This document shows positions 1 through 15,676 of a DNA stretch of 15,676 bases, one piece after another; the first letter of the stretch is position 1; every line of letters starts with the position of its first letter. The notes under the pieces are model-generated. The model had not been told where the DNA came from, did not search any database, and saw only the letters and a program-made list of their open reading frames with translations. This stretch comes from Paraspadella gotoi (lineage: Eukaryota; Animalia; Chaetognatha), in the NCBI GenBank assembly GCA_051294375.1, contig JBJCIZ010000080.1, positions 1 through 15,676 of the forward strand. The letters run 5' to 3'. Made by a program: the position numbers and the translations under genes.

Positions 1-272
1 AAAGTCTTAGGTACATTTCGTTGCCGGAACAAAGAAAATTAATTGATATCATAGTCTCAATATAGAGCCTTGAAATACCTCATTTTCTTCGTAATTTACC
101 CCTTTATTGATAAGAGCATTGTATTATAATAAAAAATGAAAACAATAATTTAACCATACAGCTACATGCATTAGCGTGTTATTGAAAGATTGTAGTTATT
201 TTTTAATAATTTTTTTTTATATTAATTTAGCTAATGGGCATTATGCAATGGTTTTAATTTTCACCTCAAGAT
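1..272. repeat. AT-rich dispersed repeat (host flank), inverted copy of 4041-4335
   Basis: Reverse complement aligns along its length with 4041-4335, e.g. gtcttaggtacatttcgttg (4-23) vs caacgaaatgtacctaagac, and aatttacccctttattgataa vs ttatcaataaaggggtaaatt. Many small indels. Confidence 0.9.
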
Positions 273-273
273 G

Positions 274-297
274 ACCAATACCAATACCAATACCAAT
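274..297. repeat. (ACCAAT)4 microsatellite abutting the LTR end
   Basis: Four perfect ACCAAT units directly before TGTTTTGAA at 298. Confidence 0.95.
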
Positions 298-987
298 TGT
301 TTTGAACTAAGTTCGGAGAGTGGTTTCATTGACTTGCTAACTTTTCCGGGCTAACTCTACGCCAAATAAAGCGTTGGTATTTGTGGCGTAATGGCGCAGA
401 GGAGACGATGGCGCCGGTCCATGACGCTCAGTGGATGAGGACGACAAAGTCTCGGCCACAAAGGCGAAGCCCAGGACTTAACAAATAGTAGTTTAAAATG
501 AAGTGTTTGAAGTGAAGTTGTAGTAAAGTTAGAAGTCCTGGGCAAAGAATAACAAAACATTTAATACAAACTCAGCAAATATATATATATAAAGTTTAAA
601 GAATCTTTCTTACTTGTTTCTGAAGCCAAAATAGTAACAAAAAGTTGCTTCTCTCACAGGAAAGTCCACCAATCCAGCAATTACCAAATAGTTTCTAAAA
701 ACTAAAGATTCCGAGATTTCTAGAGAACTAGAAAGTGCAAGAATGACAGATCTATTGGTTCATATCGATAAATCGTAATTAAAATCTATCGAAATCCGAT
801 GAACCAATCAGAATCCGCCACGGAATCTGTACTTAAGTATATATATAACAAAAGTCTAAATCAAAAGATGTCTCTGTAATCGCTGGAAAGCTGGCAATTC
901 TTGCGTCAGTAAAAAGGACAAAAGAGCATCGGGAAAAGGTGGAGAAGCTGGATTTCTTCGTGATATATAGATAGTTATTTCGTAACA
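298..987 (-). repeat. 3' long terminal repeat (~690 bp)
   Basis: On the minus strand it starts TGTTACGAA (987) immediately after GGGGGG and ends TTCAAAACA (298). The terminal inverted repeat matches 7/9 with TG...CA ends. It contains TATA/CCAAT motifs and ATTAAA (560-565, minus). The second LTR is not in the window, so the 298 boundary is less sure than 987. Confidence 0.75.
560..848. promoter_or_regulatory. LTR promoter cluster, possibly bidirectional
   Basis: TATA runs at 580-593 and 838-848; CCAAT boxes at 669-673 (+), 754-758 (-) and 804-808 (+, gaaCCAATcag); TATCGATA (DRE-type) at 763-770; ATTAAA poly(A)-like signal at 560-565 (-). Confidence 0.55.
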
Positions 988-993
988 CCCCCC
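988..993 (-). other. Polypurine tract (plus-strand DNA primer)
   Basis: Minus strand reads AGCGGGGGG directly followed by TGTTAC, a typical Gypsy PPT/LTR junction. Confidence 0.75.
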
Positions 994-1817
994 GCTATTT
1001 GGGCATGCCAAAAGCGTTCCAAATACCTGAGCATGTCTAGAAATAACAATCTAAAATATCCGGTCGCAGGGGGATGGAAAGTAGAGAAAGGAAGAATTTT
1101 AAAATGCTGAGTATGCAAAAAATGCGCCCAGGACTTACTTGTTAAGCCTAAAAAACGTTGCATACAGAAACATTCTTCTTATAAAACGGTCGAACGGACA
1201 GACGGGCAGCGACGACAGACGACAACTGACCGGCGCTAACCCTCCTCCACACGCGTTTTAATTCAAGTTTCAATGACGAGACGAAGAGGGTACAAATTAT
1301 CAAGTAGATTAAATCGTGCGAGATGGAATAAGCTACGATTAAGTCGTAAAATCTAATGAACTATTCGACCCTGAACAGAATTTTGAAGTTCGACTTGTAC
1401 GAACGGATCACGAAGACGGCCGAAGATACCGCTCATCTACCCCACGAAATTGCGAGGCGCCGTGTGACGATAGCCGAAACGTACGAACCTGACTCGCAAA
1501 ATAAAAAAGGAAAAATTAAAACTTGAAACGGCGCGCATCGGTTAAGCCGCAAGACGACCGAGAAAAACAGAAAACACTAAAAAACTGGACTTCATTCTGA
1601 CAATTTTAAAAAACGTTTGCCCGCTAACTGAAAAAGACACAATTTGAAATCCTAAAAATAAATTGACACAAGGCAGGGGGGAATGAAACATTGGGAGCTA
1701 AATATCTCTAACTGGCTAACTGACTATTTCAATGATTTTCGGCTAACTATCTTCGGGCATTATACAAAAAATACTGAAGCAATACTAAACATATATGCCT
1801 TATATCGAAGTACAAAG

Positions 1818-1934
1818 CCGGTTATAACTGACCCCGGTGGCCGACTTTGAACTTGATATACTAATTAACTTAGGTCGAATCGCGAAGACCGGTTGTAACT
1901 GACCCCGGTGGCCGATCTCCGAACTCGACATATA
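1818..1934. repeat. Direct repeat, 2 copies, 71-bp period
   Basis: ccggttataactgaccccggtggccgactttgaacttgatata (1818) and ccggttgtaactgaccccggtggccgatctccgaactcgacata (1889). Confidence 0.9.
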
Positions 1935-3306
1935 TTCCACCCGAATCTTTTGACGGCAGTCAACCGACGTCAGAAACGTGAATATTAGTGGCAGCCCGAA
2001 TTGTAAGGACAATACGGCACCGCCGGACCAATCCGAATTCCAAAATGGAACCGTAAAGGTAAACTAATGGTATTCGATCATGGCGAAGCGATATACACGC
2101 TTTCTGAAATCCATCTTTCTGCCCCCCGCAGGAACGAAATCGGATCTCGAAGTTAATGACGGACTGACTAGGAACGCCATCAACCCCTTGAACGTCAAAC
2201 GATCTTGGCGGAGCCAAAAGGTGAATTTCCCAATCTCGAACAACCGAAACCGAAAGACACAGTAAAAATCTTCAAAAATTCAAATTTTTCTTACCGCAGG
2301 TAACCGCATAAAGGATCGACACATACTTCAGGCACATCAGGCACGCACACAACATCCTTCAACGATCCTTGATGAAGACCTCCGATGCGAAAGACCAAAA
2401 TTTATGAAGATCTGTGAACATTCGTCTCCTTACCATTTTAGAGACGCACAACCGTACTACGACACGAAAAACCTTAGACTAATCCTACGGGAAAAAATAG
2501 AAAATTGAGACGAAATTTGAAAAACACTAAATTTTCGGATCAATCTATACTAAACGTAAAGGTTGTAACAATTTCATGAAATAAAATGAATTGACAAGCC
2601 TTATCTACCTTATGTCGTAGTAGGTTGGCAAAAGAAAAAATGTTAAACTAAACCTAAAAATGAAATCAATACTATCAAATACTAAACCCGAAAAATACGT
2701 AAAATTTAAAAATCAAATACACTAAGAAATATAATCAGTATCAAATAAGCGTTAAAGGAAGTTACTTTATTGAGTTTTATTTTTGCTTTTAAGCCAACCC
2801 TTGCCGACAGCAACAGCAGCCAATTATTTCGGCAAGGTAAAACTATAAGGACTACGGATGGGTTTTTATTTTTTTTAGGCTGAGACCCTCAAACCCTGCA
2901 AAAAGCAGAAAACAAGCAATAACATGGATTAAACCTTTTATCGCTGCTCCCTGTTCAGCTCCCTGCTATTCTTATACAGGGAGAAAAACATACAAAAATG
3001 AGGACGTTACAAAGTCCAAAAGATTACGGAACTAGCTGGACATGCCAAAGAAAGCCGTGACGCAAACGTAAGGGACGGTAAGTACATTAAAGTGGGTTTC
3101 GGTAAGGTTGTTTTACCGCTGAGGAAAAACGGTTGGTTAACAAAAACAACCCTTCGTTACCGATATTTCGAAAAACTTCGGAGTTCCGACGACTTACCCA
3201 ACCAACTTGAATTGAAGCACGGCTATACGCTAGGGAAAGCCGCCCGCCTGAAGCGGCGCGCAGGGAGACAGCATGGACAGGGTAGACCGTCGCTCGAAAG
3301 CCTAAA

Positions 3307-4830
3307 TTAGAAGACAAGTTATCTGGTCGTTTTATAATGTTATTTTAATATTTATTTACAATTTACTGATAGGAAATGATTGTCAATATTTGTTGATGTA
3401 ACATTTCAAATCCAATCGACCACGCGTTGAAAAATAATCTAACAAAAAAATGGTCATTTTCAACGCCCAATTTTAAAACAAATCTTGCGGTTCGTTAATT
3501 TCTTTTTTGGTTCACTTTAAATAGCTTTTGCCGGAGTGACTTCATTGTAATTAAAAAAATTGATTTTTCTTTGATATCTTTTTGAAACCAAAAATGAATC
3601 TAGAACGATGAGACTGGTTCATATTAAAGCCATTAATTATGGGGCATCTTTTCCATGATAATTTTTTCTCAATATTCCACGGATTTTTAAAAATTCTGGT
3701 TCGGAATCTTAGTTCAAAAGTATAACAACTTTTGTGAAATTTAAATTAATCACACTTGGCTGTATTTAAAAATAAATAAATATAGATTCTGAAAGAAAAG
3801 ATATTTATGTTTCTGATATAAACAAAAATTTTCTGATACCTCAAATGTTTATATAATTACTAAGGATAATGAATTATCATTTTTTGTTGAAACAAAAAAA
3901 ATTTAAAAAGATTCATGAAGGAACCTAAAAAATATGATTTAAATATGAAAATTTAGGAGTTCAAACTTTGTTTCCGTGTGATTTTAAAAACTACTGACAT
4001 AGGCTAAAAGGCTATATTATCAGATTTTTAAATTTTGTGTATCTTCAGGTGCAAATTTAAAACCTTTTGCATAATGCCCCATTTAGCTATATGTAATATA
4101 ACTATGTTTTTATTAAAAAAAAGATAACAATCCTTTTAATAACACGCAAATGGCATGTAGCTGTATTGGGTTTAAAATTGTTGTGTTTTTATTTTTTATT
4201 ATTAATCAAGGCTTTTATCAATAAAGGGGTAAATTCAAAGGAAAATAAGGTTATTTTTTCAAGGCTCCATATTGATACTTTGATATCAATTGAATTTTCT
4301 TTGTTCCGGACCAACGAAATGTACCTAAGACATTTGTAGTTTCATTAGCTAATCTTTATTTTTTATAATTTAAGGGCCATTTGGCAAAAACAGTTAAGAA
4401 ACAAAAATGGACAACAAATTTTGAGAAAAAAATTTGGATTAATTGCTTATTATTTCTTACAATTTGTCGTCAATTTATTTTTTCGTATTGTGCTTTGGAA
4501 AGTTAGGCTAAAACCCAACAGGAATCGGATCCAGTGCATTTGACCGCTGTATAATTTAATTTGACTATACAGTAAATACCGCAAAAAATAAAAAAAAATT
4601 TAAAAAGAATTCAGAACCAAGCGTCGTTTATTTCAGTTATTTTTAGTTCAAGACCTTTATGGATTTTCTTTGTTTCGGCGGCGTTGGATAGCCAAACACT
4701 GGCCAGTTCAGATCATGCATGTTTTTGTAATATTAATGCGCTACTGGTGCAAAAAATGCTAGGAACCAAAATTTATCAGAAACGCTTCGTTTCTTTTCGA
4801 TTTTTTTTTTTAAGGCGAGCGACATATCTA
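3307..4830. mobile_element. AT-rich insert, probably a non-autonomous DNA-element-type repeat (boundaries approximate)
   Basis: Abrupt change to very AT-rich, CpG-poor sequence without the A-skew of the flanks. No ORF. Contains the inverted copy of 1-272. CTAAA occurs on both sides (3302-3306, 4831-4835), a weak TSD candidate. Confidence 0.45.
4041..4335. repeat. Inverted copy of repeat at 1-272
   Basis: Direct alignment with the reverse complement of 1-272. Confidence 0.9.
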
Positions 4831-5557
4831 CTAAAGTTGTAATTTTTGCGCGTCGACTACCGAACTCCGTCCGTCAAGAGTATTTTCGGAAATCGAGCAA
4901 AAAATATTTATTAAGCCGAAAAAATGTTTAGGGCAAAACTACGAAAAATATAAAGTATCCAAAGAGAGATAATCTATATTTTCCTTTCCTACTCTAACTT
5001 GTCGCCTCTCCTCTGAGCTACCAAAATAGACAAAACCTGAATAAATACAAAAAATGGACGAATGGGGTGTTTTTAAGCCGTGGGGTGGTTTGCAACACCG
5101 CTCCGTTAGAAGGGTTTCGTCTTTCCGGTCTTGTCCTTGGCGGGAAAGACACGCTTTGGCGAGCGTTTGGTTTTTGTTCCCTCTCACTCAACCAAAAACC
5201 TTTGACCTTTGACTCAATTTCACCTTTTTCTCAACTCATACAAAAACCTAAAGACGAACGCCGACATACGTACAAAAGTGTGTGACGACGTCAAAGTTCA
5301 TACTTAAAAATAAAAAAACTTAAAAATTAAACCTGGTTTATTTCGTGGGTTAAGGGACTTAAATACTAAAAAACAAAATATAAAATTTTCTAAAAAAACG
5401 AACAATTATTTTTAAACCCTAAGGATTTCTAAAAATACTAAATATTTCATATCGAAAATTGGCCGTTCCCCCCGCACGAAACGGAGAGGAAAGAACCTGT
5501 TCGTACAAAAAGAAAAAATTTTCAAAAAAAATTTAGCAAAAAAATCGCTAAGTCCCT

Positions 5558-5685
5558 AAAAATACAAGGGAGAACTACGTTAGTAATACCTTTATCGGAG
5601 ATAATCGAGGCCGTTACAAAAAAATACCAAAGGGGAGAACTACGTAGTTAATATACGCTTTATCCGGAGATAATTCGAGCCGTAC
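5558..5685. repeat. Imperfect tandem duplication, 2 x ~60-68 bp
   Basis: aaaaatacaagggagaactacgttagtaatacctttatcggagataatcgaggccgttac followed by aaaaaaataccaaaggggagaactacgtagttaatatacgctttatccggagataattcgagccgtac. Confidence 0.9.
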
Positions 5686-7386
5686 GAACGATGAAAGTGA
5701 GGTTAACCTGCGAAAACCAAACATAACAAAAATAACAATATTACTCAAAAAAATAAATATTTATTTAAACTAAAAAATTTAAGAAAAAACGTAAGCACGC
5801 TCTATTCTCAGAAAATGTCCGCCGCACAAGCTTCTCTACGCCCGACGAAACCTCCGAAATTCTAGCTTTAACCCGAGATCGTTCGTCACGACCGGCGCCC
5901 ACTATGAACCGGAAGCGTCGTCCACGCAGGCGAAACCGAATGTTGGCGTGCATTTAACACGTGGGAAAATTTGGGGAAAAAATTCGCACGCAGTGAGAAA
6001 AAGGGGGCGTAGGCTTACGTCGCCATCGTCGGATGCATCGAAAACGATCCGATGGCCGCGTTTACTAAAAATTCCTTTACATAAACAAAAAAATTCTAAA
6101 AATTCCGAGACTTTTGAAAAAGGCAAAAATCGAGATTGAAAAAAGTCAAATTATTAAAATGGTCAAACGAGGAGAGGGGTGGTAGCGGGCCGACTTTCCG
6201 CGGCACGGACAAGCCCTCCCACGAACCTGCCCCCGCAGCCCATGGAAAAACACCCTCTCAGCGATGTTTTGTTTACCGGAACGGAGTCAAAGTAAACAAA
6301 ACAAGGTGAGACTCGTCACAAAGGCGCCCCTACGCCATCGAGTTAACGTAGTGCAGAAATATTCTCGCCGTTGAAAGAACCCCCCTCCTCGACCTAGCGG
6401 AGAGGAGAAGACGTCTGGGACGGAACCACTCTCAAACCCGGGGGGGCGCGGCGCCAGAAAGTTAATAATAAAGTTTCTTATGCCTTATGAAACGTCTTGA
6501 TGTTTAATGGTACCTTAATAAATAATCAAAGCATATGATATTCAGCTGTCTTACCGGCGAACAATTGTAATTCTATATGAATATTCAACAGTAAAAATAT
6601 AAATATTAATCACAATTATTCGCAAAGAAAAAGTAATAGACGCAATAGATCCAAATGTTAACAGCTCTTTCTTATATCCATTCAAAACGGAATGAGAAAT
6701 GTTTACACTCTTTATACAATATTAAAGTCTTTGTTACATGCAGCTTCTTTCCGCAGCGACGGACAGCAGACGACGGGCCCCGCTGACCGAACGGGCCGTA
6801 TTGAATAATAAGTGGTCGTCAGGACTTTACAGCTCCTCCCGCACCCACCAAGATCCTGTCCTCAGGACAAGCAGGGCAGCAGGGCGTATATTCTGGATGA
6901 CCATCCTTAACGGTAGCCATCTTGGATTTTTCATTCACTGACCAAGCTGTCTTCGACATCCGATGCTCTTATGTGCCACGCGGGATTTTAATAGAATTTT
7001 CATAAAGTACTCAACTAGTTGTCAAAGGATGAAGTTAGGATCTCTTTTTAATTCCGCTTTCTTTACGGCAAAACCAGAGTGGTACGGGTCCCCAGAAAAA
7101 GATAAAGATCATACTCCTAGTCCCAAGCAGAGGACAGGTTTTCAACAGTTATTTTATATGCCAAGAGATCATTTATGCATCGAAAAGAAATTGTATATGG
7201 GATCCCAAAAGAAATAGAAGAGGTATCCCATGCTTCCCTAGAATCGCCGGAGACAACAAATTTGTTAGAGTTCCGTAGTGTTCCTTCACGATTTAGTTTG
7301 AGTATTTTTTTTTTCTTGTCTATTGCTTATTACAGATACTGAATGAAAATGTAAACACATCGGCTATTCAAACAAAAGAAAAACAA

Positions 7387-9963
7387 TCACTGAATCCTAT
7401 ACAACATGTCAGTTTCTGCAGCCATATGATACAACAAACACGGGGAGATGTCAGACGAGTTGGCGAGGCGACAGGTTTTCATGGCGCTGCAATATGTCCT
7501 TTTCGTTTTCCTTTCAATACTTTTCCACGAACCTAACCGTCGCTCTTTTTTATTAAGTCCAGTTGGCTCCAGAATTTTCGGACACATAGCGAACCGAGCT
7601 AAAGCGGCGCGCAACGCCTTGGCGCCAACAGTAATGATGTCCTTCTCCAGTAACAGCTTCCAGATATTTTTCTGGTCGGCATCCATCTCACCTTCAACGA
7701 TCCAAATAAACACCTTACGCGATCCAGCGATCGAGAAAGCTAATATGACCAAAGGACGTTGACGATGCGCTTCGCTTGAAATTCTATAAGAAGCACAGAT
7801 TGGGCGTGAAGAATTTCTTAAAACGACTTTTAATTCACGATTATCCTCAGGCATAATAATCGTGTAATCACGCGAGTGATCAGAATCTTTTTCTTGCCAA
7901 CAGATTGGGTCGCGATACGCGTCGCGATTTGTAACTACAAATTCGCCTTCACTCCAATACCTTGTCACTGCAGTGAACAAATTTGGCCGAGGAGCTAGAA
8001 TGGGAAGGGCCCTGGCCCTATCATCAGTTCCGTCTCCAACGAAATCGGCGATCATCTGAATAAGGTCTCTCTCAGGCCCTTCCTGCTTATCCCATGCTCT
8101 TATAAACTCATTCAATTTCTTCCTAAGAATATGTTGCTTATAAGCATTCGGAAAGGGCATGTCCGCAATGGATGAAAGGAATTTTATCAAAGGATCCAAC
8201 TTTACCTCACTGGTAAACCCGATGTATTTGTCAATCGCTGTTGGCCCTAGATATGGAGATTCTAGAATTTTCGCCTCGCGATCCCTTTCGCTAAGACCAA
8301 AGAATGAGCCTATCTCTTCCAGGAGAGCGGGAATATATTTCCTGTGCCTTAGGCCGTATTGGGCCCAAAAAATCGGCGCATTTCCTAATACGAGAATGGC
8401 TGAAAACGGCGGAACATCCAATTCCCTAACCAACCGGTCCATTTCGTGAATCATGGGTCTATACATGACTGCCCTCAAAAACCTCTTTTTCTCCGACAGA
8501 GTCCATCGACATCGCAACTCCTCTAGCAGCTCACGTTGCTTATTCCTCGACACTCGCATTTGTCTGACGTTCAATAAAAAGGCCACTGCCTCCGGTCCTG
8601 CATCTCGACCTATTGGCAACACTTTTTCCAAAATTGCCGTCGCAGTTGTCTGACGAAACGGTTTAAGCAACCGTTTTAGTGCTTGTTGTTGCTTTAATGT
8701 CAACCTTTTAACCAATATGGGTTCGTCCTGTAACTCAGATGAATCCTCTTCCGCGATCTCAATGATTGGAGAAGCATCAACATCAATCATTTCTTCCTCC
8801 ATCACCGACTCTATCACAACAACACGCTGATCCTCGGTAGTAGCAGAACTAACAGACCTATTGTGAAAAGGATCCCAAGGGGTTTGCGGAGTTTTTGCCG
8901 CCTCCAACTCCATCTTTTTCACCTGTTCCGGAGTTAACCAGATCTCATCGTCGTCCTGAACCTTAATGCCCGATGGTCCGGATATCGTGGGTTTGAACCA
9001 AACGTTTTTATTCGGAAAAACGTGAGTCAATACCACAACATCCCTAACCAAATCGTCCTGCAAGGCCTCGTGAATCGCTTTTGCCAAGAAATATACATCT
9101 TCTAAGATGTAGCGGCGTTGTTCCTTTTTCCAGAAAGGTAAGTACCACGCGCTAAGTGTGACGGCTGGGTCCTTCTTTAGCGTGAATCCATCAAACGCAT
9201 TTTCAATAATTCGCAAGACACTGCCCGTCATTTCATTCTTTTCCTCTTCTGAGACTTGCCAAGCCTCACAAAAAAAATCCGAAGCCTCTATGTACTTCAC
9301 TCCTCTCAAAAATCCATCGTAAAACGAATTGATCAGATTCGCGAGGTCATCGAAAATATTCACGTTTATAAACACTACAGCAGGATGCGTGAGCAGCTCC
9401 TCTAATTTAGGAGGCATACGAGGTCGTCCCGAAAAGTCATTATTGGAGAGGTTAACGCAATGAACTGCGAAGGTTTCTAACCCCAACTCGTCATCTACCG
9501 CTGTCATGGCGATGCCCATGGCATCCGCCTGCAATACACCTTTCAATCTTCGTGCTTCCATCTCCGACCAATAATTGTCAACTTTCGCGAGTGGAGACTT
9601 AGCTTTCCACCTCTTTCTCAATGTCTTGGTCCAATTTTTTCTCTGTTCTAATTCGTCTTTCGTAATTCCATCCATCAACAACTCTTTCTCATGCCAAGAT
9701 GTGAAGCGGGGAGGGAGGACGTGTGGCCGCTGCATGCAGCAGACTCCCTCAATGTCCATGACAATGAGGGATACGCGCCCCTCAATCTTCATCTTGTCTG
9801 CCCTTTTTAATTGAACGTCTAAAAACGAATTCATTTTCTTAGAGTCGTGACAGATCTTTCCGATTATCTCGTGATCCTCTACTGGAAATGACAAATCAGT
9901 TTTACGTGTTTCGCCTCGCCTTCTTCGCCATTTTTCCTGTAATTTGTTCCTAAAGTCTGACAT
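7387..9963 (-). CDS. ORF3: DEDDy 3'-5' exonuclease (RNase D/WRN/Mut-7 family) plus second degenerate exonuclease domain, ~858 aa from first ATG (frame open from 10032)
   Basis: ExoI VMDIEG (9748-9756), ExoII LLTHPAVVFINVNIFDDL (9346-9351) and ExoIII SAWYLPFWKKEQRRYILED (9097-9111). The C-terminal LVILAFSIAGSRKVFIW...KLLLEKDIITVG...YHMAAETD repeats the fold without the catalytic acids. No signal peptide or TM segment is evident. Confidence 0.8.
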   Translation of the reverse strand: MSDFRNKLQEKWRRRRGETRKTDLSFPVEDHEIIGKICHDSKKMNSFLDVQLKRADKMKIEGRVSLIVMDIEGVCCMQRPHVLPPRFTSWHEKELLMDGITKDELEQRKNWTKTLRKRWKAKSPLAKVDNYWSEMEARRLKGVLQADAMGIAMTAVDDELGLETFAVHCVNLSNNDFSGRPRMPPKLEELLTHPAVVFINVNIFDDLANLINSFYDGFLRGVKYIEASDFFCEAWQVSEEEKNEMTGSVLRIIENAFDGFTLKKDPAVTLSAWYLPFWKKEQRRYILEDVYFLAKAIHEALQDDLVRDVVVLTHVFPNKNVWFKPTISGPSGIKVQDDDEIWLTPEQVKKMELEAAKTPQTPWDPFHNRSVSSATTEDQRVVVIESVMEEEMIDVDASPIIEIAEEDSSELQDEPILVKRLTLKQQQALKRLLKPFRQTTATAILEKVLPIGRDAGPEAVAFLLNVRQMRVSRNKQRELLEELRCRWTLSEKKRFLRAVMYRPMIHEMDRLVRELDVPPFSAILVLGNAPIFWAQYGLRHRKYIPALLEEIGSFFGLSERDREAKILESPYLGPTAIDKYIGFTSEVKLDPLIKFLSSIADMPFPNAYKQHILRKKLNEFIRAWDKQEGPERDLIQMIADFVGDGTDDRARALPILAPRPNLFTAVTRYWSEGEFVVTNRDAYRDPICWQEKDSDHSRDYTIIMPEDNRELKVVLRNSSRPICASYRISSEAHRQRPLVILAFSIAGSRKVFIWIVEGEMDADQKNIWKLLLEKDIITVGAKALRAALARFAMCPKILEPTGLNKKERRLGSWKSIERKTKRTYCSAMKTCRLANSSDISPCLLYHMAAETDMLYRIQ

Positions 9964-10246
9964 TGTGTACTCCCCTAAAAGCGATCTCTCATTAACCACT
10001 GCAAATGAATCCTTTGGGTAATTGTGACACAAATAAAATAATCAAAGGGGTATAGTATTGTGATAAAAATTATCGCGGCTTAAAAAACTAAAATCCGACT
10101 TTTTTTTTCACATTGTATGCTCAAAAATCTGTACCAATGACTTTTTTATTCTTGTAATAAAGCTACTTCTTGATTAGTTTGTAGAGCTTTTGAGACATTG
10201 AATTGCCCTAAGGCTAAAAGCATAAGAATAAAAGGAATTAACTACG

Positions 10247-10296
10247 TTTTTCTTGTTTTTTTTTTGTTTTTATTTTTTTTTTGTAATTTTTTTTTT
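10247..10296 (-). repeat. A-rich tract (element sense) in pol-ORF3 spacer
   Basis: About 50 nt of nearly pure T on the plus strand. Confidence 0.8.
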
Positions 10297-10454
10297 CACG
10301 CGCGCGATCTATTTACAATGTTAAAATCAATTTAAAAACCTCTATCTCCCTAATGCCTTCAACCGAGCTTGGCTCTTTGGAACCGTTATTTAAATTTAAT
10401 AATATTTTTAATAATTATTTACAGTTTAAGATGCATATTATTATTATTAATACC

Positions 10455-13400
10455 TTATTCCTGTTCCGCTTCCGTCTCTTCGTCCGATTGAACTTGGCCT
10501 CTTTCCAAACGGGCGTAATCAACTCTCGGCCGGCGTTGTCTCCTGGGTGTTGATTCTTTCAATCCTGGCGCATTGAAACTCGATAAATTTCTAATTTCAC
10601 GGCTCGTTGATGTTCCCACAGATTCAAAGCTGATTATTGGCCGAATTGATTGACGAAACATTTTTCCTCTCCCTCGTGGAATCAACGGAGAGTCGGAATA
10701 TGAGCCACGGATTGCTCTTGTACTTATATTGAAATCTATTTGTATATCTTCTTGTTCCGCGGGTTCGGTCTCCGCCTCCGACTCACCCCCTTCTGGAGAT
10801 CGAGTTCCAACCGATCGATCGTAATCCGGAATTATCGATTCAGACGGAGAATTCTGTTCGTTGATGACCGCGTCGTCGCCAGCGTCGCTAAAGAGAGAAT
10901 CGTCGGAAGAATAATCGCAAACCTCCTCCGTCATAGTAAGCCTCGGCTTTTCTGCCCGCTTTTCAACTTCCTGCAACCATAGTTGCAATCCAGTAGGGAG
11001 ACATCCCTCTTTCATTTCTTCTTTCATGATATCCAATGAACTGTGATCTTCCATTTGATTTCGTCCCTCTTCCGCCGTGTAACATGATTCAGGTTCGCGA
11101 AACTTTTTCAAATCACATCCCGGGCGAATCTCTTCATCTCCGCGCTCATTTATTATCACATATGCATTACCTTTTCCTTCTCCGTGAGGATGTAATTCCT
11201 TCTTAACTGTCCATGGGCCTTCGTAATGAATACTTAGTTTATCTCTTTTTTCTCGCGGCAATAATTTCAGGACTTTTTGCCCCTGTTGAAAAATTTCCAC
11301 GTGTTTACCTTTAACACTCTGCCGAACCATCTGCTCCTGATATTTTATCATTTGTTCGTTTCTCATGTTCCTCATGTTGTCGACCTTGTCTTCCATTTCC
11401 TTCACATACATTCTCATTGGTTTACGAGTGCCCTGTAATTCCAACGGAGTTTCTAATTGATTTTTCAAGGGGATTCGCGGCTCGCGACCAAACATCAATT
11501 TAAATGGTGAATATCCCGTGGCTGGATGAGGAATAGAGTTGTAAGTAAACTCAATCCATGCAAGATATTTAGACCAACGTTTTCCGAACTGATTTACTCG
11601 TTTAGCCAACTCGCTAATAATGGTTCTATTTTTTCTTTCCACTTGGCCCTGTTTCTGAGGGTGGTAAGTCATGGAAAATTCTTTCTTAGTCTCATAGATC
11701 TTACACAACGCTTCCACTAGTCTATTCTTGAATTCAGGCCCATTATCCGATCCCCATACTACGGGAAAACCGAACCTCGTAATAAACTGTTCCAATTTCC
11801 TCGCGACCGTTGTCGATTCTGCCCCTACAATGGGAAATAACACACAGTATCTTGTGAATCTGTCCTCAATGACAAGGATGTGATCAAATCCATCTGAAGG
11901 CGTTCCAATTTTCAATAAATCCGTGGCCACGTGATGCATTGGAAAGTTTGCATTTTGTGGTATCATGGGAACTATTTTTTTTCCCTTAGATCTCATTGCC
12001 TGACACTCAAAACATCTGTTCACCTTTTCCGTGATGTCTCGGCCCATGCCCGGCCACACGCAAAAGGAATCTAGCCTCGCCTTCGCCCTTTTTGCCGAAG
12101 GGTGACCACTACGATAATCGCCATGCGCGCAGTCCATGACCTTTGGAACGAGTGAAGCGGGGATTACTACGCGTAAACATTGTTCCCCTTTGTGCGATTT
12201 TGCATGATACAACATTCCGTCTATTATCATCAACCCGTCACACTGTTTGGAAAACCATTGTGGTATCCGTAACATCTGTAGTTTTGTCTTAATGTCTTCT
12301 GGTTTTTCCATCAATATCTGAATAACTTGACTGATAACAGCATCTGCCACTTGCGCATTCTTTATGTTATTTATTTCATCTTTATCAGATATTAATGATG
12401 ACAATGGAACCTCTGCGTCACAACATGCTCCTAGCAAAATGTATTCTTCTTTTGCCGTATTATCTGGTGGATCGGCATGTGGAGCTCTTGATAAGGCATC
12501 CGCGTCTGCGTGAGCCTTTCCAGCTTTGTGTTTTATCACGAAATCATATGTGGATAACTCCAGTGCCCATCTAGTTCTCTTCCCAGAAGCATCCTTTCTC
12601 GTGTCTACACTGAGACATGACAAGAGTGGTTTATGATCTGTATATATCACAAATGGCTTGAATCTCAGGTAGTGGGAGAATTGTCTCACTGCCCAGATTA
12701 TACCATACATTTCCTTATCAAAGGGGGCCCAAGCCCGTTCTGCAGTGTTCAGTTTCTGACTCGCAGCGGCTACTAGCACTTCCTTCCCCCTTCCGTCTTT
12801 TTGCGTCAAGACTGCTCCCACGGTGTTTTGACTACCGTCGGGTTTCACAAAAAATTGCTTCTCAAAGTCTGGATAAGCCGTGGCCGTACCTGCCATCAAT
12901 TCTTTTTTCAATTCTAAAAATGCTTCTATACATTGTTCATCCCATGTAAACTCTTGATCTTTTTTCAACAGATCTGTCAGTGGCTCCGCGATCTTTGCAA
13001 AATTTGGGATGTGACTACGATAGTAGTTAGCCAAACCGAGAAAACCTCTGACCTGTTTGACATCAGTGGGCTCTGGCCAAGCATCAACTTTGGCCAAGTT
13101 GACTGGATCCGGTTTTATTCCTTCATTGTTTAGCCTAAATCCTAGTACCGAAACCTCGCCTCTCGCGAAATCGCATTTCTCCGGGTGTAGCTTCATTCCT
13201 GCCCGTTTCATGGCGTCCAAGGCTTTTTCCAACATATCCAGATGTGTCTCAGCGTCAGGAGTCGCTATCAAAATGTCGTCCAAATACGCGAGCATATATT
13301 CAATTGGAAGTCCTCTGAAAACCAATTCTACTAGCGCTTGAAATGAAGCTGAGCTATTTTTAGCTCCCATTGGTAAACGTATATATTCCAAATGTCTGCA

Positions 13401-14084
13401 ACCATCTGAAAAGGCAAAGTATTTTCTCTGACTCTCCAGAACTTCCATGTGATAATATCCTTTCAAGAGATCCAGCTTTGAAAAGACTTGTGGATTTTTC
13501 AACCTACGGACACCATCTTGGATGTTTGGAAGAGGGAAATGTGCCTTTTCTGTAACTTTATTCAATCTCCTGAAATCCGTGCAATATCTCCAAGAGCCAT
13601 CTTTCTTCTTTACCAGAACAATTGGTGCATTGTATGGGCTTTCTGATTCTCGAATTGTTCCTAATGCCAACATTTTATCAGTTTCTCTATTTACTGCTTC
13701 TTGGACGTCAGGAGGTGGAGCCCGATAGTTTGGCACAAAAACCGGCTTATCAGTTGTCAACTTTATTTGATGATATGCTAATTCAGTCCTACCCAGATCA
13801 GATTCCGTCTTAGCGAAGACATCGCTGTAACGATCTACCAATTCGCGAAATCGTCGCTCTTGGTCTTCATTAAAACATTCGCCACATTTCACTGGCCCAA
13901 ATTGTTTTTCTGCGGTGGACTCATCTTCGTCCGCTTCCGGGATAAGACCAGGCATCTCCTCATCGTCTTCCTCATTTGGCTCCAATACATACGGATTGTA
14001 TCGACTCTCTTCCGCCGACATATTCGCTATTGGTTTCGCTTCGTCATCTGGTTCCTCTTCTAGTTCTTCCATTGTTGGAAACAA
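10455..14084 (-). CDS. pol: Pol polyprotein: reverse transcriptase, RNase H, integrase
   Basis: RT: SPYNAPIVLVKKKDGSWRYCTDFRRLN, LPMGAKNS, YLDD (13275-13286). RNase H: VKPDGS, DKEMYGI, YTDHKPL, ADALSR. Integrase: HHCC (AHGDYRSGH...CFEC), D-D-E (VATDL, SDNGPEF, QVERKNR) and a GPW (GPY/F) motif. The TTG start is not the real start; this is the continuation of the upstream PR frame. Confidence 0.97.
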   Translation of the reverse strand: MFPTMEELEEEPDDEAKPIANMSAEESRYNPYVLEPNEEDDEEMPGLIPEADEDESTAEKQFGPVKCGECFNEDQERRFRELVDRYSDVFAKTESDLGRTELAYHQIKLTTDKPVFVPNYRAPPPDVQEAVNRETDKMLALGTIRESESPYNAPIVLVKKKDGSWRYCTDFRRLNKVTEKAHFPLPNIQDGVRRLKNPQVFSKLDLLKGYYHMEVLESQRKYFAFSDGCRHLEYIRLPMGAKNSSASFQALVELVFRGLPIEYMLAYLDDILIATPDAETHLDMLEKALDAMKRAGMKLHPEKCDFARGEVSVLGFRLNNEGIKPDPVNLAKVDAWPEPTDVKQVRGFLGLANYYRSHIPNFAKIAEPLTDLLKKDQEFTWDEQCIEAFLELKKELMAGTATAYPDFEKQFFVKPDGSQNTVGAVLTQKDGRGKEVLVAAASQKLNTAERAWAPFDKEMYGIIWAVRQFSHYLRFKPFVIYTDHKPLLSCLSVDTRKDASGKRTRWALELSTYDFVIKHKAGKAHADADALSRAPHADPPDNTAKEEYILLGACCDAEVPLSSLISDKDEINNIKNAQVADAVISQVIQILMEKPEDIKTKLQMLRIPQWFSKQCDGLMIIDGMLYHAKSHKGEQCLRVVIPASLVPKVMDCAHGDYRSGHPSAKRAKARLDSFCVWPGMGRDITEKVNRCFECQAMRSKGKKIVPMIPQNANFPMHHVATDLLKIGTPSDGFDHILVIEDRFTRYCVLFPIVGAESTTVARKLEQFITRFGFPVVWGSDNGPEFKNRLVEALCKIYETKKEFSMTYHPQKQGQVERKNRTIISELAKRVNQFGKRWSKYLAWIEFTYNSIPHPATGYSPFKLMFGREPRIPLKNQLETPLELQGTRKPMRMYVKEMEDKVDNMRNMRNEQMIKYQEQMVRQSVKGKHVEIFQQGQKVLKLLPREKRDKLSIHYEGPWTVKKELHPHGEGKGNAYVIINERGDEEIRPGCDLKKFREPESCYTAEEGRNQMEDHSSLDIMKEEMKEGCLPTGLQLWLQEVEKRAEKPRLTMTEEVCDYSSDDSLFSDAGDDAVINEQNSPSESIIPDYDRSVGTRSPEGGESEAETEPAEQEDIQIDFNISTRAIRGSYSDSPLIPRGRGKMFRQSIRPIISFESVGTSTSREIRNLSSFNAPGLKESTPRRQRRPRVDYARLERGQVQSDEETEAEQE

Positions 14085-14350
14085 AGGGAATCCCTCACCT
14101 GGTTGCGATCGTCGTCGACAAAGCCATACCTAACAGCTAGGGACGCTATCGGCAAGCCTTCAGTCGGCGTCTGGCGCACTTGACTGGACTTCTCGCCCGC
14201 ATCCAAACAGTCTGCCGGTAGTGGGATGTCGACGACCGTTGGGTTGATGGTATCAACCAATGCAACCGGCGTTCCCGCGCTAATATTAATCTTAGAAGGC
14301 CATTGATTAAAAATTTCTAATGTCATTATTTCATTTCTTGGGTCAAGCAC
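14060..14350 (-). pseudogene. pol: Frameshifted middle segment of pol (post-protease, dUTPase-fold-like spacer)
   Basis: TLEIFNQWPSKINISAGTPVALV resembles the degenerate dUTPase-like beta region often found between PR and RT in animal Gypsy elements. It overlaps neighbouring frames at both ends. Confidence 0.7.
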
Positions 14351-15003
14351 TGTGTGCCTGCAACTTGTGGTACTTCTTTGTGATACTCAGATGAAAAGGG
14401 TCGTGCATATATGGCATATGGATGTTCATTATTGTCAGTCCTACTTACTGAGGGTCCCGCCAAATAAACCTTCACTAGATTCCGCGTTAGTGGGGGTAGT
14501 GTTACTGACTCAAAAGCTGCTAGATGAGGTGGTGGAGGCTCAACAGGAGGTGGTGGACGATACAGTGGAATTCTTACCTGATCAAAGGTAACTGCATTAG
14601 TAGTGAAATCTATAACTGCTTTGTGTTGTTCCAAAAATGGTAACCCGATAACCACGGGGTGAACCAAGTTAGGAACAATGTTAAATTCTGCTCTAAAGTG
14701 TTTATTATTGTCTCCTATTTGGAAATCGACAAGGGCCTTTCCTGTGGATTTAATTGGGCATTTGTTTATACTTATGCATAAGGCGGGTTTATCATTCAAT
14801 AACCGTACTTTGGAGGGAGGTAATAGACATAATGTTTCCTCATCTATACAATTTCCTCCTTCAGCACCTGTATCTATTAATGTGGTTATGGTGGTGGATC
14901 CTATTTTTAAGTTAACTGAGCATCTGCAATCGTTTTTCGTTCCAGGGTTTGGATCTTTCCCAGTGGCTTCCCCCTGGTTGGCAGCACTGGCTATCAAAAA
15001 CCC
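14326..15003 (-). CDS. pol: Aspartic protease (N-terminal part of pol, -1 frame relative to gag)
   Basis: TLIDTGAEG (DTG 14866-14874) and VVIGLPFLEQHKAVID retropepsin motifs. Confidence 0.92.
   Translation of the reverse strand, partial: GFLIASAANQGEATGKDPNPGTKNDCRCSVNLKIGSTTITTLIDTGAEGGNCIDEETLCLLPPSKVRLLNDKPALCISINKCPIKSTGKALVDFQIGDNNKHFRAEFNIVPNLVHPVVIGLPFLEQHKAVIDFTTNAVTFDQVRIPLYRPPPPVEPPPPHLAAFESVTLPPLTRNLVKVYLAGPSVSRTDNNEHPYAIYARPFSSEYHKEVPQVAGTQCLTQEMK
14960..15003 (-). promoter_or_regulatory. -1 programmed ribosomal frameshift signal (gag-pol)
   Basis: G GGU UUU heptamer (15003-14997) in the gag frame directly before the gag stop, a 6-nt spacer, then stem CCAGUG (14990-14985)/CACUGG (14965-14960). 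A -1 shift enters the protease frame (GF-LIAS). Confidence 0.85.
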
Positions 15004-15676
15004 GCGCCAGGGTACCACACTCCGTCTGGATGTAACACATATCCATAACGACCGACCTCCGGGCTCTGGAAATTATTCCATTCTTGGTTGTAATCATATG
15101 CAGCCTGCCCGGCCTCCATGCAAGGATGGGTAAATGAATTGACATTTGCTTGCTCCGCAGCCACCGCTTCATTAAACTGATTCTCTGAATTATCTATTTC
15201 TCTTGATGCTGCTGCTATTGCTGGTGGTGCTGTGGCTGAAGCAGGGTTGGTTCCGGGAGTGATGAACCTTTGTGACTGTCCAGTTGCCTGGAATCCTCTA
15301 GGGAATCCACCTCGCCCAAAACCTCGGTACGGTCTTCTTGCCACTGTGTACGATGGAGTCGCACGTGAGTACGTGACTCCAGATGCTCCAGTCAGAGACG
15401 TCTGTAGATCTTTTATAGCGTTGGTCATCTTGGTGAACCCTTCCTCCATCTCCTTCTTCATTATCGTCATCGAATCCTGCGTCGCGGCTTGAGACGCTTC
15501 CACTCTTTGTATCGCCATTTCATTTATCTTTATTTTATGCTTCAGGTCCAAGTACTCGTTACTCGTCAACCGATTGGATTGTTCCCTTGCCGCTGGTGCC
15601 GGCACTTGTGCCGCCAACAATCCTTGAGACACCGCCCCTGGGTCTGAAATCGTTTCCACTGGTCTGGATGCTTCCC
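14994..15676 (-). CDS. gag: Gag, C-terminal part (frame open to window edge)
   Basis: Lies directly upstream of PR and is joined to it by the slippery site. Contains a coiled-coil-like segment and an RG-rich motif RRPYRGFGRGGFPRGF. No stop codon up to position 15676. The capsid domain is not visible. Confidence 0.8.
   Translation of the reverse strand, partial: EASRPVETISDPGAVSQGLLAAQVPAPAAREQSNRLTSNEYLDLKHKIKINEMAIQRVEASQAATQDSMTIMKKEMEEGFTKMTNAIKDLQTSLTGASGVTYSRATPSYTVARRPYRGFGRGGFPRGFQATGQSQRFITPGTNPASATAPPAIAAASREIDNSENQFNEAVAAEQANVNSFTHPCMEAGQAAYDYNQEWNNFQSPEVGRYGYVLHPDGVWYPGAGF

Follow-up and report, generated by a model that had tools for sequence, protein, structure and literature searches.

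Organization of the locus

The 15,676-nucleotide stretch of DNA analysed here (the window) is contig JBJCIZ010000080.1, positions 1 to 15,676, of the chaetognath Paraspadella gotoi (assembly GCA_051294375.1). Its minus strand carries a Ty3/gypsy-type long terminal repeat (LTR) retroelement, identified from the Pfam domains of pol, and the element includes an extra open reading frame (ORF3) beyond pol (Table 1). This report concerns the C-terminal part of the ORF3 protein, residues 458–881 (hereafter the C-module), which together with the stop codon occupies positions 7387–8660. It pairs an all-helical domain with a DnaQ-like domain in which DEDD-type catalysis is very unlikely, and it follows an N-terminal half that looks like a functional exonuclease. 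The probable start of ORF3 is Met24 (position 9963), which lines up with the beginning of the homologous proteins.

Table 1. Features of the retroelement and of ORF3 in the window
Feature	Position	Strand	Description
gag- and protease-position frames	14994–15674 (open at the window end), 14326–15072, 14060–14386	-	Overlapping open frames upstream of pol
pol (reverse transcriptase, RNase H, integrase)	10455–14084	-	1209-codon frame; RVT_1 2.6e-27, RT_RNaseH 1.4e-29, Integrase_H2C2 5e-12, rve 8.7e-11
ORF3	7387–10032	-	881 codons open, downstream of pol; stop codon 7387–7389
N-terminal DEDDy-type 3'-5' exonuclease domain (putative)	8995–9963	-	Residues 24–346
Acidic linker	8662–8994	-	Residues 347–457; isoelectric point (pI) 4.5, net charge -10; no confident model
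All-helical domain (predicted)	7912–8661	-	Residues 458–707; 15 predicted helices, pI 9.4
Pseudo-exonuclease domain, DnaQ-like fold (predicted)	7390–7890	-	Residues 715–881

The ORF3 protein family

The ORF3 protein matched no Pfam family at E ≤ 1, and phmmer against the chains of the PDB returned chance matches only (E ≥ 0.47). A HMMER search of 1.84 billion representative sequences recovered 57 relatives at E ≤ 1e-3; for 15 the value was 1e-30 or lower, and the best match stood at 1.3e-73. Judged by these matches, ORF3 is a member of a real protein family without a name. Both halves belong to the family architecture: all 11 relatives of at least 900 residues contain the N-terminal domain and the C-module, which in one of them is truncated at its end. 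A local jackhmmer search among the relatives found the C-module nearly whole in 16 proteins, including that of the window, and partial in five more that end early. Since the C-half of the window protein is only 14–22% identical to those of its relatives, the module has been maintained over a long divergence.

Ten relatives were looked up and come from ENA or Logan assemblies, on contigs of 1.7–6.0 kb that barely exceed the length of the gene; the relatives printed in full length start with Met. Short contigs and Met starts would fit separate or subgenomic transcripts. No ORF3-related locus was found in JGI metagenome contigs or in IMG/VR. A word-indexed homologue search gave nothing beyond a query member, with low-complexity words probably crowding the candidate list, and a BLAST search of a phage collection, which has little bearing on the question, gave no match. 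Contigs from four sequencing runs (one organism, three studies) hold ORF3 nearly unchanged, which has no bearing on its expression; the differences listed among them, two synonymous and two non-synonymous, are too few to use.

In the N-terminal half, residues D93, E95, D229, Y308 and D312 are invariant in all 11 full-length proteins and form the pattern D-x-E ... D ... Y-x3-D of DEDDy exonucleases. Profile evidence points the same way at low scores. The exonuclease family PF01612 matched this half in three of 22 relatives, every time below its curated cut-off (best E 1.9e-4), and because of that threshold annotation pipelines would overlook the domain. An N-domain profile compared with NrnC matched the ExoIII motif at E 0.046, and the profile search against PDB chains returned the WRN exonuclease only (E 0.58–0.85). 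From its residue pattern, the N-terminal half looks like a functional DEDDy 3'-5' exonuclease.

Predicted fold of the C-module

Predicted whole from its single sequence, ORF3 gave an unusable AlphaFold2 model with a predicted local distance difference test score (pLDDT) of 35.4. The C-module was considered from a second AlphaFold2 model, of residues 458–881 with a 16-sequence alignment (A1), which reached a pLDDT of 80.7 and a predicted template modelling score of 0.77. It shows fifteen helices (model residues 6–238) followed by an alpha/beta domain (about 260–424), and in the latter, ORF3 residues 715–881, an RNase H-like alpha/beta fold of DnaQ topology is predicted.

Foldseek with this model found no match at E ≤ 1e-3 in the PDB or BFVD, and its weak top rows were mainly 3'-5' exonucleases. 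VIA-align, run independently of Foldseek against 48,161 representative chains, placed Nibbler EXO domains nearest to the alpha/beta domain (Table 2); Z differences below 1 count as ties, so Nibbler cannot be preferred to WRN or RNase D from the scores alone. Polymerase I exonuclease domains, NrnC-type nucleases, Rrp6, EXD1 (Z 10.0) and Egalitarian (9.7) rank next; Pol theta and Pol nu are matched as well, through their inactive exonuclease-like domains.

Table 2. Solved structures matched by the C-module model in VIA-align
Domain of the model	Chain	Protein	Z	Deviation	Aligned residues	Model residues
Alpha/beta	7jw2_B	Aedes Nibbler EXO	12.4	2.9	158	
Alpha/beta	7jw6_A	Drosophila Nibbler EXO	12.4	2.9	158	
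Alpha/beta	2e6l_A	Mouse WRN exonuclease	12.2	3.3	154	
Alpha/beta	1yt3_A	E. coli RNase D	11.9	2.9	147	
Helical	6ke6_RP	90S pre-ribosome HEAT-type protein	7.0	7.7	200	3–240
Helical	7jw3_C	Aedes Nibbler N-terminal domain	7.0	6.5	157 of 244	3–172
Helical	6rxu_UT	90S pre-ribosome protein	6.6	4.6	146	6–299
Helical	5l3x_B	NELF-AC subcomplex	6.6	2.5	64	176–240

Few rows of this wide search reach the helical domain, and the Nibbler N-terminal domain (NTD) is a joint-best, though weak, match at the top of its list, with 16% identity, more than any other row there, and the model aligned to residues 135–315 of the chain. In the available text of PMC11347159, Nibbler and MUT-7 consist of a HEAT-like-repeat NTD followed by a DEDDy EXO domain. 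Both of our matches are to one protein, Nibbler, and follow its domain order at comparable spacing (offsets from the model to Aedes Nibbler of 132, 143, 168 and 197), and this co-ordered arrangement favours a likeness of the whole module to Nibbler/MUT-7. A feature search of the Atlas with residues 460–881 returned clusters of PF01612, including one with Mut7-C; their scores of 0.77–0.83 serve as a lead only, and with the helical part alone the search gave no usable match. Within the helical domain, P628 is invariant (16/16) and V665 is found in 12 of the 16 proteins, with E514, K515, F518 and A675 also conserved. The block from P628 to V665/G666 falls outside the stretch aligned to the Nibbler NTD crystal construct.

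A preliminary description, made from the DNA letters, had taken this region for a catalytically dead Nibbler/EXD3 with a helical domain and a pseudo-exonuclease. The DnaQ-like topology predicted for the C terminus, with Nibbler EXO domains as its nearest solved structures, agrees with the DEDD fold proposed there. The wider likeness to Nibbler/EXD3 holds in part: both domains have structural matches on Nibbler, of which the EXO match is tied with WRN and RNase D and the NTD match is weak, and no link was found at the level of sequence. In neither the phmmer nor the A1 profile search of PDB chains did Nibbler, EXD3 or MUT-7 match at E ≤ 10; the profile search gave nothing for the C-module, its best row being mS59 at E 1.3, and Pfam found no Mut7-C domain in ORF3. 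Since none of these searches tied it by sequence to Nibbler, EXD3, MUT-7, any PDB chain or any Pfam family, the idea that the C-module was recently captured from a host silencing gene is not supported. The model makes an ancient kinship with the MUT-7/WRN/RNase D group plausible; MUT-7 itself was reportedly first presented as a homologue of WRN and RNase D (in the title of Ketting et al. 1999). Internal duplication was also considered as a source: hhalign of the C-module, or of its EXO-like part alone, against the N-terminal exonuclease gave a probability of 0.2–0.4%, and any such duplication is thus beyond detection.

Replacement of the catalytic residues

The Exo motifs of the C-module were placed by the order of strands and helices in the model and by the pattern of the N-terminal half, so the correspondences that follow are those of topology, not of superposition. 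At the position of D-x-E, the end of strand 1 reads Y-R750-I-S; Arg750 stands at the Asp position in all 16 proteins, of which one has an acidic residue at +2. In the ExoII region, the helix after strand 4 (residues 797–812), no column has an acidic residue in as many as 12 of the 16. The last helix carries H869-M-A-A-E873 where DEDDy enzymes have Y-x3-D, with His and Glu both invariant (16/16); H869-x3-E873 is chemically akin to Y-x3-D and to H-x4-D and identical to neither. The motif strings quoted for positions 7387–8660 in the preliminary description are all present there, and its observations on the three motifs (no Asp or Glu at ExoI, no Asp at ExoII, a divergent ExoIII) extend from the window copy to the family. 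PF01612 matched neither the window protein (E ≤ 1) nor the C-half of any of the 22 relatives. Given the Arg in place of the ExoI Asp and the lack of acidic ExoI and ExoII columns, DEDD-type two-metal hydrolysis is very unlikely in the C-module of any of the 16 proteins.

Judged from the alignment, the C-module is nonetheless not a decaying relic, because R750, C848, H869 and E873 are invariant and several further columns are conserved: Cys711 (15/16), Asn753 (13/16), His719 (12/16) and the acidic positions 861 (13/16) and 863 (12/16). The window copy has Ser at both 753 and 863. C711 and H719 lie just upstream of the pseudo-exonuclease domain or at its start. Because the ExoI and ExoIII positions oppose each other in the DnaQ fold, the former active-site pocket should be lined by the invariant Arg, His and Glu. 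On the predicted fold, this suggests a pocket retained for binding, or a switched site.

Possible roles of the C-module

We favour, at a probability of about 0.5, the view that residues 458–881 act as a non-catalytic arm that binds RNA or a partner and targets, in cis, the N-terminal DEDDy exonuclease. R750 would take the place of the metal-binding ExoI Asp, and H869 and E873 those of the ExoIII Tyr and Asp. Two-metal hydrolysis would have been lost and the old pocket kept for binding, perhaps of a 3' end or a phosphate; it may also contain a Cys/His metal site. The C-module would select the substrate or partner on which the N-terminal exonuclease acts.

The argument for an arm working in cis is that all 11 long relatives join the module to an intact-looking DEDDy domain. 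Charge argues for binding: the helical part has a pI of at least 8.4 in 13 of the 16 proteins and the pseudo-exonuclease of at least 7.9 in 14, while the N-terminal half is near neutral and the linker acidic. So do precedents for inactive DnaQ-like domains that bind RNA or serve as adaptors, among them Egalitarian and PML-1 PXL. EXD1 and Maelstrom are treated in the same way in the available sections of PMC5408684. Finally, the architecture mirrors that of Nibbler, in which an RNA-binding NTD is believed to deliver the EXO domain to Argonaute-bound substrates (PMC11347159, in the text available). When the N-half and the C-half were predicted as a complex, the score was 0.00, with alignments unused and an uncertain partner fold; this is evidence in neither direction.

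Among the alternatives, it is unlikely that the pseudo-exonuclease is a generic DEDDy remnant, left by an old duplication of the ORF3 exonuclease or derived from another PF01612-type enzyme, with a helical domain unrelated to Nibbler and a role in folding, oligomerisation or scaffolding. The tie of the EXO match across Nibbler, WRN and RNase D, the weakness of the helical match and the PF01612-like character of the N-terminal domain are all what such an origin would leave. Tandem active and inactive DnaQ-like domains are also known elsewhere, and our matches include the inactive ones of Pol theta and Pol nu. Against this, the hhalign result would make a duplication very old, both Nibbler domains match with the right order and spacing, and the invariant polar residues point beyond a scaffold.

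Those same residues could instead mark a switch of the active site, which we consider quite unlikely: the DEDD site would have given way to a new catalytic or metal site of Cys711, His719, Cys848, His869 and Glu873, with Asp861 and Asp863, making the domain a different type of nuclease. The conservation described above, of R750 too, is compatible with such a site. There is a precedent in the MAEL domain, whose EHHCHC set lies on a DnaQ-H fold and for which a switched site has been proposed (PMC2628886, in the text available), and a Cys-His-Cys motif is noted in the DEDDy ORFs of Vesta2 and Vesta5 in the available text of PMC5408684. The residue order C..H..R..C..H..E, however, differs from that of MAEL, Pfam gave no Maelstrom match, no Maelstrom chain is among the structural matches listed, and the window copy has Ser at 863.

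The preliminary description had proposed a decoy, in which a captured host Nibbler/EXD3, acting as a dominant-negative, occupies PIWI/Argonaute proteins or their RNAs without trimming and blunts silencing. A Nibbler-like architecture, with the best EXO and NTD matches both on Nibbler, and the loss of the catalytic carboxylates are in keeping with it, as is the status of retroelements as targets of silencing of the PIWI-interacting RNA (piRNA) type; a silencing role has been suggested for retroelement DEDDy ORFs (PMC5408684, available sections). We find it decidedly improbable, since a pure decoy has no need of the exonuclease with intact residues to which the module is fused in 11 of 11 long relatives. 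A structure-based identity to Nibbler of just 7–8% (EXO) and 16% (NTD), with no profile match, speaks against recent capture and against preserved partner surfaces, and the invariant residues would sit in the old pocket and not on the surface. We give very little credence to ORF3 as an anti-silencing nuclease whose dead Nibbler-like arm docks, as Nibbler does, on Argonaute/PIWI-loaded small RNAs and passes their 3' ends to the live exonuclease, destroying the guides that target the element.

Other features of the window

The region of gag, protease and pol comprises four overlapping frames (14994–15674, 14326–15072, 14060–14386 and 10455–14129), that is, three frame changes ahead of the reverse transcriptase, and the sole domain hint in the gag- and protease-position frames is a sub-threshold RVP match (E 0.046). 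At about 6200–7300, contig depth in the four runs is 5–50 times that of the element interior, and just to the right of 6867 the contigs of all four runs diverge. This segment is possibly a high-copy repeat, perhaps the 3' LTR with many solo copies, in which case the other LTR lies beyond the window.

Single contigs (runs X6, X9 and X5) join 6867 to 10797 and 10383/10398 to 10797, with 20 letters on the shorter side; these are weak indications of element variants that would lack ORF3 or part of the spacer between pol and ORF3. In run X6, the kind of which was guessed to be RNA, one contig joins 7673 to 15545; the 7871 bases it skips are bounded by GT..AG on the plus strand, antisense to the element. 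This join has a single record, with a shorter side of 26 letters. An AT-rich flank without long ORFs holds a 68-nucleotide inverted repeat (77–144 and 4184–4251; 84% complementary, arms 4039 nucleotides apart), which may represent the ends of a non-autonomous DNA transposon.

Comparison with known systems

To our knowledge, the function of exonuclease ORF3s in LTR retrotransposons has not been established. The nearest described elements are the Juno and Vesta LTR retrotransposons and the Athena/Terminon elements of bdelloid rotifers, which carry a DEDDy-exonuclease ORF3 (Rodriguez, Kenefick and Arkhipova 2017, PMC5408684, as far as its available sections go). The element in the window resembles Juno and Vesta in having an extra ORF downstream of pol, on the same strand of a gypsy-like LTR element, whose N-terminal half encodes a DEDDy-type exonuclease. 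According to the same sections, the motif of the bdelloid families is a DEED variant and a dUTPase domain separates their protease from reverse transcriptase, whereas here the pattern is DEDDy and Pfam detected no dUTPase domain in the element. The discussion of that paper already raises inactive derivatives like Maelstrom and EXD1 as well as the Cys-His-Cys motif. Its available text describes no second, inert module of the NTD-EXO type, and it is by this description that the bdelloid ORFs are set apart here. A second, inert Nibbler-like module in a retroelement ORF3 was not found in open-access papers or bioRxiv either, where searches for a pseudo-exonuclease or Nibbler-like module borne by a retroelement brought up only PMC5408684 and general reviews.

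Nibbler, MUT-7 and EXD3 carry a DEDDy set, whereas in the C-module the ExoI Asp has become Arg and the ExoI Glu and ExoII Asp are lost; it shows no sequence or profile similarity to them in our searches and no MUT7-C domain. Unlike them, it is part of a retroelement ORF3, in which it is fused C-terminally to a second exonuclease that looks intact. EXD1, Maelstrom, Egalitarian and PML-1 PXL are unrelated to it in sequence, and none of them, as described in the sources available, is borne by a retrotransposon or fused to an active exonuclease. The E-H-H-C-H-C order of MAEL, as given in the available text, is not reproduced by the C711, H719, R750, C848, H869, E873 set seen here.

The ORF3 family would thus couple an intact DEDDy domain to a selected, probably non-catalytic module built like Nibbler, the trimmer of piRNAs and microRNAs. 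Whether ORF3 serves to target substrates, bind 3' ends or interfere with small-RNA silencing, the C-module offers a testable handle on its role. Beside Maelstrom, EXD1 and Egalitarian, the module is a further case of a predicted pseudo-exonuclease, one with a remodelled and invariant pocket.

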